DNA from: a virus
IMG/VR virus record: IMGVR_UViG_3300026519_000008
Coordinates: 1 to 64,000 of that record
Length of the DNA: 64,000 bases
Reading direction: 5' to 3' (one strand)
Translations under genes and position numbers: made by a program
Part shown: piece after piece, positions 12,561 to 64,000 of the stretch
Position numbering within the stretch: the first letter of the stretch is position 1
How the letters are laid out: every line of letters begins with the position of its first letter
The notes under the pieces: generated by a model
What the model was told of the DNA's origin: nothing
The model's database searches: none
What the model saw: only the letters and a program-made list of their open reading frames with translations

Positions 12561-12999
12561 GTCCAGCCGGACGCGCTGGGCGTCGCGTGCCTCGTCGGCG
12601 TCGTCTGAGTCGTCGGCGTTCTTACGTCGTCGCGTGGGGAAAGACTGACTGGCGTCTGCGTGGGGAAAGACGAGGCACGAGTCTTTGTGTGTTAAAGACG
12701 AGCTTGCGAGTCTTCGTTGCTTGACGGACTAACGTGTACGTCGTCTCCCTCCCGCCGCTGAGCTTACTTCGTCGGTTCCTCCCGCTGCTGCTTCTGAAAT
12801 TGATTTCAGGTCGGCGTCGTCTCCACTGCTTGCGTTCTAACACGTCGTCGTTCTGTTTGCTCCCACGATCTAGGACGTCGTCGTTCTTCTTCGCCCCCGC
12901 CTTTTGATATAAAGCGGTCGCGTGGGGAAAGACGAGGCACGAGTCTTTGATTTTGAAAGACGAGGCCCCCGAAGGGGCCCCTATTCGATGCAATTCACC

Positions 13000-13314
13000 C
13001 TAGATCAGGCTGTCGATCCTTTTGGGGTCCAACCACAGCCAGCAGCTATACATACACACCGCCGGGAGCGTCTGGAACCCCGCCTCGTTCACCGCCACCC
13101 GGTAGATCTTGCTGACCAAAATACTGACGTTGAACAGTTCCCAGGAGCTGAAAGGGCAGTTGGGATAGGCCATGCGGAGCAGCCCCTCCCTCTCCGCCAG
13201 GGTCCGGATCTCGTCCACCGCCGTGTCCGGGTCGGTGGTGATCCGTTCGGCTGCCCCCACCAGCTCTCCGTCCGCCCGTCGAATCTCCGTGGTCACCACA
13301 TAGCGATCAACCAT
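13000..13314 (-). CDS. Hypothetical early protein
   Basis: AGGAG/GAGG RBS; hairpin downstream at 12964-12980. Confidence 0.6.
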   Translation of the reverse strand: MVDRYVVTTEIRRADGELVGAAERITTDPDTAVDEIRTLAEREGLLRMAYPNCPFSSWELFNVSILVSKIYRVAVNEAGFQTLPAVCMYSCWLWLDPKRIDSLI

Positions 13315-13382
13315 GACCTCTACTCCTTGCCCCGTTTGGGGCGGTGGAAAAAGGGGCCCGTAATGGGCCCCAGTCTACTGCC

Positions 13383-62059: not shown

Positions 62060-62085
62060 CTCTACTCTCCTCGCGTGGGGAAAGA

Positions 62086-64000
62086 TTAGAATGTGTATTC
62101 CTGCATATCCCCAAGATTTCTCCCCAGTTTCATATCCACTACTAACGGAACCGTGAGTTTGATTCCAAACCGTTCCAACGGCAGGTTTTCCATCGTGTCT
62201 TTCAGCTGCTTTGCTTTCACATCAACCTTATCTTCGTCAACCAAGAATATCAGTTCGTCATGGATAAATAAACTAAGATCGACAGTACGACCATCTATAA
62301 GCCCAGTCTCATCCGCAATCAGAGCCCCGAACAGTGTCGTGTCAGATCCAGCCCCCTGGATAGGTGTATTGATAGCAATCCGCTCATCCGCCGACCGCTT
62401 GTCACTATCCTGAGAATGGATATTCGGTGTTCTCCGAATTCTACCGAATGGTGTTCTGATATATCCGTATTTCCGTGCGAAGGCAATTTCCCTCTTATGC
62501 CAGTTTGGAAGTTCTTTGTACAGCTCATACAAGAACGTATGCCTCCAAGCCTCCGCCTCTTCCAAGGAGAGCACCACCCCGTACTCATCCCTGGCATAAA
62601 TCTGAAACCCTCTTCCACCCATTCCGTAGATCAACCCAAAATTCACAGCCTTCGCATTCTGCCTCATAGACTTTGTGACTTCATCCAACTTTACCTTCAT
62701 GATGGCAGAGGCCGTCAGGCGATGTAGATCTAATCCTTGCTGATAGGCCCTGGTCATCTTCCTATCACCGGACCTATACGCAGTCCATCTCAATTCATTT
62801 TGTGAATAGTCCAGGGCCAAGAAGCATTTCCCTTCCGGCGCAACCAATAACTGCCTAATCCATTTCGCAATCTCTTTATTCCGTTTCGGGATGTTCTGGA
62901 GGTTTGGGTTCCGAGAGCCTGTTCGGCCTGTGGCCGTATTTACCGTTGAGATTTGTGTATGCAGTTTTCCGTCTTCATGAACTGCATTCTCAAACCCTGT
63001 CAGGTACGTGGTAAATAATTTCCTGTACGGACCCCATTGAGAGAGAAGCTCAATAAATCTTGCTGGAGGACTATCAATTTCAAGTTCCTCTCGCACTCTG
63101 GCCAGTAGCTTCTTCCCTATAGCTATTTTGCCTGTGGCAGTTTTGCCTGGAGATTTAAGCCCGAAACCGTCTTTGCTGAACAGGACATCCCGCACCAGAT
63201 CCCCTCTGCTCAGCCTAATGCCTTTACTTTTATGCTTTTCCAAGACAGCTTCTGGAATAAGCTCAATGGCCTCCTGCTCAAGCCGCCTGATCAATTTAGC
63301 AACGTTGTCCTTGACCCTGGGTAGGCCCTCAAGATCAAAATTTACCCCCGTCCTTTCGATTTTATGGAGGACCCTTGTGGTTACCGGTTGTACGAACCTA
63401 ACGTAGTAATTTAGCAGTTTTTTGTCAGATCGAATCTTGTCCCGTAGAATCAGACCGCAGGCTAAAGTCGTAGCAGTATCAGCACACGCGTAGAATTCGT
63501 ACTCTTCCGGATGCTTTGACAGTGATCCCAACATGTCCGTTTTATCTACCAGATTTTGACTTTTGTGATCGGCCCTCTCAGGGCAGAATGCCCGCTGAAT
63601 ATCAGCCAGTGAGGCTACTTTATGCACATCTGGGTCTAAACAGTGAGCAGCAGTCTGAACGTCCATCACGTACATTTGGATCTTATCGGCATCCAACCCC
63701 AACCACTCGAACTGATGCAGGTCATACCCTGTCATCATGTACTTCTTAATGTCCCGCCGGTACAGCAGTTCTCGTAACTCTGCTACTTTTTGTTCGTAGT
63801 TTTCAGCCTTGCGGATAAAGATCTTGGTCGGAATCTTAGTTTTCGAGTCCTTAGGTGCCCGATCCCAGGTAATGACCTTATCATGCTCTCCAGCCTTACA
63901 TTCTTCCCACAGCACAATATTGTAGCCACCATCCACCGAGTCACTTACTGAATAAGACACCACTACATGATTACTACTCCACCGATCATTGCCCTGAGTC
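62086..64000 (-). CDS. polA: Family A DNA polymerase (5' end beyond window)
   Basis: TATGR.GS.NPNLQNIP, LDYSQNELR, RQNAKAVNFGLIYG, NTPIQG, FIHDEL; frame open to window end. Confidence 0.95.
   Translation of the reverse strand, partial: TQGNDRWSSNHVVVSYSVSDSVDGGYNIVLWEECKAGEHDKVITWDRAPKDSKTKIPTKIFIRKAENYEQKVAELRELLYRRDIKKYMMTGYDLHQFEWLGLDADKIQMYVMDVQTAAHCLDPDVHKVASLADIQRAFCPERADHKSQNLVDKTDMLGSLSKHPEEYEFYACADTATTLACGLILRDKIRSDKKLLNYYVRFVQPVTTRVLHKIERTGVNFDLEGLPRVKDNVAKLIRRLEQEAIELIPEAVLEKHKSKGIRLSRGDLVRDVLFSKDGFGLKSPGKTATGKIAIGKKLLARVREELEIDSPPARFIELLSQWGPYRKLFTTYLTGFENAVHEDGKLHTQISTVNTATGRTGSRNPNLQNIPKRNKEIAKWIRQLLVAPEGKCFLALDYSQNELRWTAYRSGDRKMTRAYQQGLDLHRLTASAIMKVKLDEVTKSMRQNAKAVNFGLIYGMGGRGFQIYARDEYGVVLSLEEAEAWRHTFLYELYKELPNWHKREIAFARKYGYIRTPFGRIRRTPNIHSQDSDKRSADERIAINTPIQGAGSDTTLFGALIADETGLIDGRTVDLSLFIHDELIFLVDEDKVDVKAKQLKDTMENLPLERFGIKLTVPLVVDMKLGRNLGDMQEYTF

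Follow-up and report, generated by a model that had tools for sequence, protein, structure and literature searches.

A virus record from a hydrothermal-vent metagenome, that of an uncultured siphovirus, contains a short asymmetric word, GCGTGGGGAAAGA, which is a real, strongly selected and lineage-specific cis-element. The window that we analysed is the whole stretch of 64,000 nucleotides (nt) formed by bases 1-64000 of the 92,373-nt IMG/VR record IMGVR_UViG_3300026519_000008, and several of the counts given here cover the whole record. The element is characterised by discrete sites, a strict sequence, a single orientation, a placement at gene junctions and a restriction to one lineage. As to its role, the reading that we put first, although only tentatively, is that the 13-mer is the docking site of a DNA-binding regulator of the phage lineage, which would act on passing or starting polymerase in a stoperator-like manner.

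The window holds 13 exact copies of the 13-mer, all of them on the + strand, where 0.11 copies with at most one mismatch are expected (100 dinucleotide shuffles; largest count 2). Its coding-strand (-) form is TCTTTCCCCACGC, or about 16 nt when the flanks are included (g-TCTTTCCCCACGC-G-a). Searching with up to three mismatches added a single convincing copy, at 16112-16124, with two mismatches and on the same strand, and the other three-mismatch matches were at chance level (35 found vs 24.9 expected). The initial annotation of this DNA had counted about 14 copies, none of them reversed, which agrees with the 13 exact copies and the 2-mismatch copy of the window. A strand-aware scan of all 92,373 nt, which it had proposed as a check, gave 15 forward and 0 reverse copies (14 exact and one with a single mismatch), that is, 16 copies when the 2-mismatch copy is included. 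This orientation is not random, but every confident gene of the record lies on the - strand and the co-orientation of the copies is therefore inseparable from that of the genes. Information content was maximal across the 13 positions and extended weakly to the preceding G (11 of the 14 exact copies) and to a following G-A (the G again in 11/14). Neither half-site was enriched alone, which indicates that the 13-mer is read as one unit, and past about 16 nt the flanks of the dispersed copies are unrelated, so that the copies are not parts of a larger repeated element. The word is pyrimidine-rich (11/13 bases) and unstructured in a purine-rich transcriptome (coding strand G 31%, C 20%), it occurs in tandem at spacings of 20, 26 and 52 nt, and it is distinct from a 14-bp palindrome that is the other repeated word of this genome.

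The copies are concentrated in non-coding DNA. Eleven of 15 fall within the 10.5% of the record that scored as non-coding (binomial p 1.6e-8), and with clusters collapsed 8 of the 11 independent loci do so (p 1.9e-6). The idea that the copies have no function, being chance repeats or what is left of a small mobile element or of CRISPR-like repeats, is barely credible in view of this enrichment (p ~1e-8) and of the 13 copies found where 0.11 were expected. It draws on the C-rich arm of the word, CCCCAC(GCG), which seems to resemble the 5' arm of some type I-E repeats. The initial annotation had described this likeness and the lack of a second arm. The likeness is confined to the C-rich arm, GCGTGG follows the box in one copy only, there are 0 reverse-complement arms and no reverse copy, the spacing is irregular and the flanks are unrelated.

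The individual copies, all given here for the - strand, show how closely the element is fitted to gene junctions. In the 26-nt gap between the PolA and portal genes, a copy at 62073..62085 takes up all the room from the PolA stop codon (TAA, 62086-62088) to the ribosome-binding site GAGGAG, with the portal ATG 13 nt downstream. The copy at 37205..37217 fills the 36-nt gap between a glycosyltransferase gene and that of a ParB-like nuclease, lying 12 nt past the stop codon and abutting GAGG, with the ATG 11 nt downstream; it heads the ParB-like nuclease, a putative small terminase and TerL. At 25565..25577 a copy follows immediately on the TAG-TAG that ends the open reading frame (ORF) 25581-25973, and the next credible gene begins 243 nt downstream. 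These are the three sites (25564, 37204 and 62072) for which a position at or after a stop codon had been reported, correctly. A further copy, at 22715..22727, stands 9 nt beyond the T-run belonging to a weak terminator-like hairpin, and the GTG start of a phosphoesterase gene (22150-22668) follows 46 nt later. Two copies, starting at 37257 and 55976, are within coding sequences, as had also been noted. The first (37257..37269) occupies part of the last 13 codons of the glycosyltransferase gene, where it is read L-S-P-R-D, 52 nt upstream of the 37217 copy, and the second (55976..55988) is at codon 49 of 254 of an orphan gene (55370-56134) that stands between a DnaD-like gene (56131-57150) and DnaB. 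The exact copies inside coding sequences, three in number, are all read L-S-P-R, and three of four in-gene copies lie 62, 63 and ~215 nt upstream of the next gene start. Outside the window, the 1-mismatch copy at 80075 is near the 3' end of the tape measure gene and an exact copy at 90312 precedes tail genes (90324). Taken over all sites, the distance from box to start codon is 11, 13, 46, 62, 86 and up to more than 600 nt.

An island of about 5 kb (11.3-16.7 kb) accounts for half of all copies. It has a GC content of 0.59, against about 0.49 elsewhere, and orphan genes with strong ribosome-binding sites, and it has no match in GenBank phages. The clusters reported at 12.6-12.9 kb and 16.1-16.25 kb are both within it. 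In the coding direction, the second of them starts with the exact copy at 16244..16256, the first of a 3+1 cluster before the orphan gene g1, where the overlapping ORF 16032-16346 scores as non-coding. It continues with the exact copy at 16163..16175, in a C-rich non-coding stretch and with 16 more upstream nt in common with the 14016 copy, the degenerate copy GGTTTCCCCACGC (16112..16124, 2 mismatches), which lies 20 nt upstream of the copy at 16104, and the exact copy at 16092..16104, 86 nt upstream of the g1 ATG. Further downstream are exact copies at 14004..14016, 51 nt past the stop codon of ORF 14067-14399 and past a strong hairpin, and at 12920..12932, about 30 nt past a GC-rich UUCG hairpin that ends ORF 13000-13314. 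Lastly, a tandem pair with a spacing of 26 nt has its first copy at 12658..12670, of which the first 6 nt are able to pair with an upstream AAAGAC, and its second at 12632..12644. The island also carries repeated GGCGGCGGGA words, a polypurine tract (~16500-16580) and a near-perfect 30-nt palindrome (16344-16373). Its non-coding stretches are rich in GACGAC/GACGCC, and similar ACGAC-type tracts occur near the capsid gene in the relatives L017, L022, L025 and L026.

The phage belongs to a large group of uncultured 90-106-kb phages with capsids 50-60% identical and a conserved gene order, and the element is not a property of that group. No multi-copy 13-mer core was found in about 80 capsid-relative loci and four whole related genomes (G001-G004), and an exact 16-mer scan of IMG/VR returned four unrelated single matches only. 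Portal-anchored relatives in IMG/VR and JGI metagenomes were only 35-44% identical and all lacked the 13-mer; one portal relative (P0002), on a 62.9-kb contig, is 52% identical. A TerL-anchored search for relatives found nothing, searching species-representative genomes for the 14-mer gave only single matches among the matches listed, a literature search for the 13-mer itself gave primers and unrelated matches only, and no RNA datasets containing this DNA were listed. The comparison is most telling at the two tightest junctions. In G002-G004 the PolA-portal junction and that between ParB and its upstream gene measure 11-20 nt and hold a ribosome-binding site alone, whereas this phage has the 13-mer as an insert that lies precisely after the stop codon and before the ribosome-binding site. 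The relatives' junctions being bare, the box is an added control point. The G001 word TCTTTCCGGTGC was considered as an analogue of the 13-mer and rejected, since it is a coding 15-nt tandem repeat of a pentapeptide-repeat protein. A tandem 15-nt repeat, ATCTTTCCGGTGCAA (L095:32-242, equal to G001 20032-20242), codes for a pentapeptide-repeat protein; its likeness to the 13-mer is superficial and the two are unrelated. G002 carries two units of about 200 nt (L026:1284-1485 and 3997-4198), each with TGACAGTAAATGTCAC and a sigma-54-like TGGCACG-N4-TTGCA followed by TATAAT.

Fifteen host-type promoters were mapped on the coding strand between 65 and 11 kb (11167-64871), with the form TTGACA(A)/GATACA-N18 (often with TGn)-TAnnnT, and none in the head or tail modules. 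Three of them (19209, 15684 and 13775) have a longer form in common, GGGAGATACAA...GGGGTGGTAKGCT. In the resulting operon map each box between 65 and 11 kb is inside, or at the distal end of, an operon served by a host-type promoter. The boxes come between PolA and the portal gene, which is followed by a strong terminator; as two boxes between g341, g198 and the glycosyltransferase on one side and ParB, the putative small terminase and TerL on the other; once after UvrD...ThyX...g130, then, beyond nine small ORFs, once more before the phosphoesterase; as the 3+1 boxes between an anti-defence operon and g1; once after g2-g5; and once after g6 and g7, with two further boxes before DnaA boxes and the ORF 11607-12191. 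These positions, within operons or distal in them, are where a roadblock must sit. A role of the word as a mark of late genes would suit the portal, terminase and tail genes, but it does not agree with the loci at the phosphoesterase, beside DnaB and in the island. The palindrome of this genome, TGAAATYRATTTCA (14 bp), has a distribution of its own, with 23 copies in the window (3132-59775) and 31 in the record, about one every 3 kb, often just upstream of the -35 of a host-type promoter (for example at 44943, 41936, 19233 and 15729) or else with a terminator on one side and a ribosome-binding site on the other. Variants such as TGCAAGCGCTTGCA, TGCAAACGTTTGCA and TGCAATCGATTGCA are found in relatives and are reminiscent of LacI/CcpA-type operators.

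The portal and ParB junctions also set a limit on what the box can be. With an ATG only 13 nt (portal) and 11 nt (ParB) past the box and GAGG(AG) in between, the box cannot serve there as a sigma-70 -35, spacer or activator element, because a sigma-70 promoter using it would start transcription inside the portal and ParB genes. If all sites have one function, the box should be a compact promoter starting at its 3' edge, or it should act on polymerase or RNA that comes from upstream, or on DNA.

Under the reading that we prefer, the second of these would be carried out by a sequence-specific DNA-binding protein, probably an orphan protein of the 11.3-16.7-kb island, which would bind the asymmetric site as one unit. 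The sites would lie inside operons started by host RNA polymerase at the TTGACA-N18-TAnnnT promoters, and the bound protein would act either on polymerase arriving from upstream, as an orientation-dependent roadblock, or on polymerase starting nearby, as an operator. The promoter-distal genes gated in this way would be the portal gene, ParB and the terminase, the tail genes and the island genes, together with transcription into the origin. A fixed amount of the protein, titrated by the replicating genomes, could plausibly provide a timer. We infer a protein as the reader, DNA rather than RNA as its target and a negative effect; the tandem spacings of 20, 26 and 52 nt are easier to reconcile with small DNA-binding proteins than with the footprints of RNA polymerase.

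Several points weigh against this interpretation. Scans with Pfam, PHROGs or NCBIfam, which covered about 100 of the ~130 credible ORFs (nearly all of at least 100 amino acids, aa), found no helix-turn-helix (HTH) repressor, gp71-like repressor, integrase or partition system. The gene content looks virulent (own PolA, DnaB, primase, RecA and ThyX), whereas known stoperator and SPBRE systems serve lysogeny. Three island copies, which follow hairpins or terminators and have an AT-rich hexamer 6 nt downstream, look more like promoters than roadblocks, an exactness of 14 in 16 copies is above what is usual for operators, and in a genome with all confident genes on one strand no flip of orientation is observable. 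One way to accommodate the virulent gene content, which we regard as quite unlikely, is that a virulent, thermophile-associated siphovirus acquired a stoperator-like roadblock code together with the GC-rich orphan island and uses it as a timer of the lytic cycle instead of a lysogeny device. A small island protein, bound to the one-way word set into the junctions of conserved operons, would then hold back the packaging and structural genes and shield the origin until it is titrated out by the replicating genomes.

The promoter-like copies just mentioned lead to a different explanation, unlikely in our judgement but deserving of weight, in which the box is a compact single-block promoter that starts at the conserved G of its 3' edge. 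Its reader would be either an RNA polymerase of the phage that has escaped recognition or the host polymerase, redirected by a small phage factor. A contiguous and near-invariant block of 13-16 nt with a conserved G and then A after it would fit such a promoter, as would copies in tandem, clustered among small orphan genes, and the position of three copies (12932, 14016 and 22727) directly past hairpins or terminators. Additionally, an AT-rich hexamer lies 6-7 nt downstream of five copies, four in the island and one at ParB; it is TTATAT at 6-7 nt for the 12932 copy and, at 6 nt, ATATAT for 14016, TTATAT for 16104 and TTATCT for 16175. These last two points are weak, since the island copies share a wider similarity and may be duplicates, and an AT-rich melting element common to all copies is absent. 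The tandem pair is directed into the putative origin described below, and T7 promoters likewise point into the primary origin of T7. Such a promoter, however, could work only with a polymerase of its own or with a factor that radically re-programmes another. The scanned proteins included no member of an RNA_pol or sigma family, tblastn gave no homologue of P23-45 gp64, no protein with a convincing DxDxD motif was seen (the motif is confined to a tail protein, the probable helicase loader and some small proteins, where its context seems unrelated), and no lineage-specific protein of more than 340 aa is encoded outside the tail module. A start at the box edge would also give the portal and ParB genes leaders of 11-13 nt beginning with the ribosome-binding site. 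The polymerase gene is unlikely to be in missing DNA because the record appears practically closed: from the capsid stop codon to the head-tail adaptor across the record ends (1-1019 + 91715-92373) there are 753 nt, compared with about 300-760 nt in relatives. The two ends thus appear to be adjacent in the real genome, and the record is probably near complete in spite of a CheckV value of 79%.

The surroundings of the tandem pair call for a third explanation, equally one that we hold improbable without dismissing it, that the 13-mer is a site of DNA transactions, either an iteron-like site for the replication organiser of the phage, a polar replication-fork barrier, a strand-specific nick site or a Chi-like recombination signal. 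In the coding direction, the second copy of the tandem pair (12670/12644) lies some 70 nt ahead of a cluster of five DnaA boxes (12472-12560), into which the pair points. A second cluster, of four boxes (11385-11440), lies on the other side of the ORF 11607-12191, and beyond it, at 11245-11335, is a tandem repeat of 45 bp that is AT-rich and at which the Logan assembly (a single DNA run) is interrupted. The region 11245-12560 looks like a bipartite oriC-like origin, judging by these motifs, and the whole related genomes G001-G004 have no DnaA-box clusters. Strict identity and one-strandedness are typical of sites recognised by enzymes or initiators, and 8 of the 16 copies are direct repeats, with a 20-26-nt spacing in places, beside the oriC-like region. 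Strand-specific nick sites are found in T5, phiKMV-like and tf/LUZ24-like phages. The GC skew of the record, strong and uniform throughout, is compatible with one-way replication, and the intergenic enrichment could merely mark where the 13-mer is tolerated. A weaker point in favour is the copy about 150 nt past the DnaD-like two-domain gene that precedes the probable loader and DnaB. The protein encoded at 56131-57150 has about 28 distant homologues, and an alignment-based model of it (predicted local distance difference test score, pLDDT, 82.5) has two domains, one with a weak likeness to the DnaD N-terminal winged helix (Z 5.4-5.6) and the other to a DnaD C-terminal domain (Z 4.7). From this model it is a probable replisome organiser. 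The orphan 254-aa gene after it (55370-56134) is possibly a helicase loader, and with DnaB (54063-55370) they would form the order organiser-loader-helicase, as in Firmicute phages. Iterons are clusters of direct repeats beside DnaA boxes, an AT-rich region and an initiator gene; here a tandem pair and further copies lie beside DnaA boxes and an AT-rich repeat, but 8 copies are dispersed singly and no initiator was identified. Lone copies at 11 dispersed loci, fitted in after a stop codon and before a ribosome-binding site, are atypical for iterons, Ter or Chi. Furthermore, Chi sites measure 5-8 nt, and no nickase was identified.

A fourth explanation takes the transcript as the target, the 13-mer being a linear RNA or non-template-strand element in elongation, either a boxA/nut- or ops-like antitermination site or the site of an RNA-binding protein for processing or translation. 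We rate it as quite doubtful. All copies are transcribed in the sense direction inside operons and two of them abut the ribosome-binding site; the word is unstructured and pyrimidine-rich in a purine-rich transcriptome, and it has about the size of boxA or ops, whose copies within one genome are also near-identical. The 5' part, (G)UCUUU, is like the boxA core, but the likeness extends over about five bases and is not significant, and no NusG, RfaH or N-like protein was found. A boxA-like 11-mer near ~12700 was rejected, as about 20 are expected by chance. Start-codon distances from 11 to more than 600 nt are a poor fit to a translational operator, and we know of no endoribonuclease that reads a 13-nt single-stranded word, which counts against a processing site. 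The box flanks have no consistent shared RNA secondary structure and no Rfam family matched, so the suggestion of an RNA-processing code made in the initial annotation received no support. The word also has a mirror-image likeness to the 3' tail of 16S rRNA and a 9-nt complementarity to a conserved segment of 16S rRNA, both near chance level and without a mechanism.

Among known systems, the stoperators of Cluster A mycobacteriophages offer the closest comparison. They are asymmetric 13-mers in promoters and short intergenic spaces, oriented with transcription and bound by a monomeric two-domain repressor (PMC9283540). The present element is like those of L5 (gp71) and TipsytheTRex (PMC9283540) in being a 13-nt asymmetric word with more than a dozen near-identical copies in a regulatory cluster and in short gaps, oriented with transcription and restricted to one lineage. 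In contrast, it has 16 copies rather than 20-35, its copies are more exact, and it comes from a phage with virulent-looking genes and a probable thermophilic Firmicute-like host. The likeness to stoperators proposed in the initial annotation therefore stands as far as the element is concerned, which is non-random and asymmetric, lies at junctions and matches in length, number, placement and, in a genome with all confident genes on one strand, co-orientation. No gp71-like repressor, integrase or partition system was found among the scanned proteins, nor any other sign of lysogeny or a temperate life style. Stoperator-like is thus the leading analogy rather than a demonstrated membership. In Bacillus phage SPbeta, MrpR/YopR, a repressor of recombinase fold, reads SPBRE, an intergenic word of 15 bp (PMC10516654). 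SPBRE resembles the 13-mer as a phage-specific word repeated intergenically in a large phage, with a Gram-positive host and a phage-made repressor as reader. MrpR, however, has a tyrosine-recombinase fold, of which no example was found here, and SPBRE is situated in promoter regions of a temperate phage, whereas several of the present sites have no room for a promoter.

The two phage polymerases of the Thermus phage P23-45 use two short promoter words, in blocks that end at the start site and precede small early ORFs (PMC10770324). Like T7-like and P23-45 (gp96, gp64) promoters, the 13-mer is a short, near-invariant and co-oriented block, clustered before small ORFs and scattered later, and one P23-45 class is GC-rich (PMC10770324). 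Unlike them, it belongs to an apparently complete genome without a detectable polymerase, and it has no similarity to the P23-45 motifs (ttATTCCTTTA; ctaGGGGC). Layout is thus common to stoperators, SPBRE and P23-45 promoters, and the proteins that go with each of them were not found in this phage. The boxA/nut and ops sites (NusB-NusE, RfaH) are also linear, unstructured and oriented 12-13-nt words in transcription units, near-identical within a genome, but only the UCUUU core is common with boxA, no gene of a cognate factor was found and the present copies are denser and in tandem. The start-associated sequences (SAS) of Cluster K mycobacteriophages are reportedly 13-nt asymmetric words upstream of some gene starts, which contain the ribosome-binding site and lie 3-8 nt from the start codon. 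The 13-mer shares with SAS its length, its asymmetry and its position just upstream of the starts of a subset of genes, but here the ribosome-binding site is outside the word and the distance to the start runs from 11 to more than 600 nt.

As to the reader itself, g1 (15727..16005, - strand), an orphan gene of 92 aa that comes immediately after the 3+1 box cluster, is a weak candidate for the 13-mer binding protein, with a ribbon-helix-helix-like sequence pattern as its sole basis. Its predicted pattern is beta-strand/helix/helix, and its language-model neighbours are ribbon-helix-helix families with scores of 0.87-0.91, which are leads only. As a ribbon-helix-helix protein it was rejected, having no homologues, an AlphaFold2 (AF2) monomer pLDDT of 70 and no meaningful Foldseek/VIA-align match, and this too weakens the case for a DNA-bound regulator. 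A 242-aa protein (48287-49015) matches a PHROG annotated 'transcriptional regulator', but it is conserved in the family and hence a better candidate for the family-wide palindrome. There was no Phage_integrase-like match in any scanned protein and no integrase or ParA among ORFs of at least 280 aa, and the sole ParB-type protein is of the nuclease type, beside the terminase. Searches of the PDB by sequence with the orphan and tail proteins gave nothing.

The siphovirus encodes capsid, prohead protease, portal, TerL, tail proteins and an ordinary 2,569-aa tape measure protein, together with PolA, DnaB, a Toprim primase, RecA, UvrD- and DEAD-type helicases, resolvases and ThyX. In addition, the phage encodes a GH108 endolysin, a deoxynucleoside monophosphate (dNMP) kinase, ArdA (18217-18771), which lies in the anti-defence operon (16694-19233, behind the promoter at 19209), the glycosyltransferase, the ParB-like nuclease and an AAA ATPase (41934-44852) split by an intein with a LAGLIDADG domain. 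No tRNA was found, and megablast and blastn against GenBank phages gave no match. Kinship with P23-45 was rejected because only PolA, DnaB and a ParB-like segment match and no RNA polymerase portion is present in the tape measure protein. The promoter style, the strong GGAGG ribosome-binding sites, the Firmicute-phage-like matches of the tape measure protein and the DnaD-like gene suggest a Gram-positive-type, Firmicute-like thermophile as the host.

Few phages are known to have a one-way word distributed over the genome, the systems being Cluster A stoperators, SPBRE, start-associated sequences and phage-polymerase promoters. The present word, however, occurs in a phage in which neither the repressor types nor the polymerases that those systems need were found. 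If a roadblock code in a lytic phage is true, silencing at the level of elongation would extend past lysogeny, and if the box is a promoter, the orphan genes must include a factor, so far unrecognised, that redirects polymerase. In either case, gene timing in an uncultured family of vent phages becomes accessible through the 16 sites, a compact handle that needs one oligonucleotide and about ten candidate proteins.

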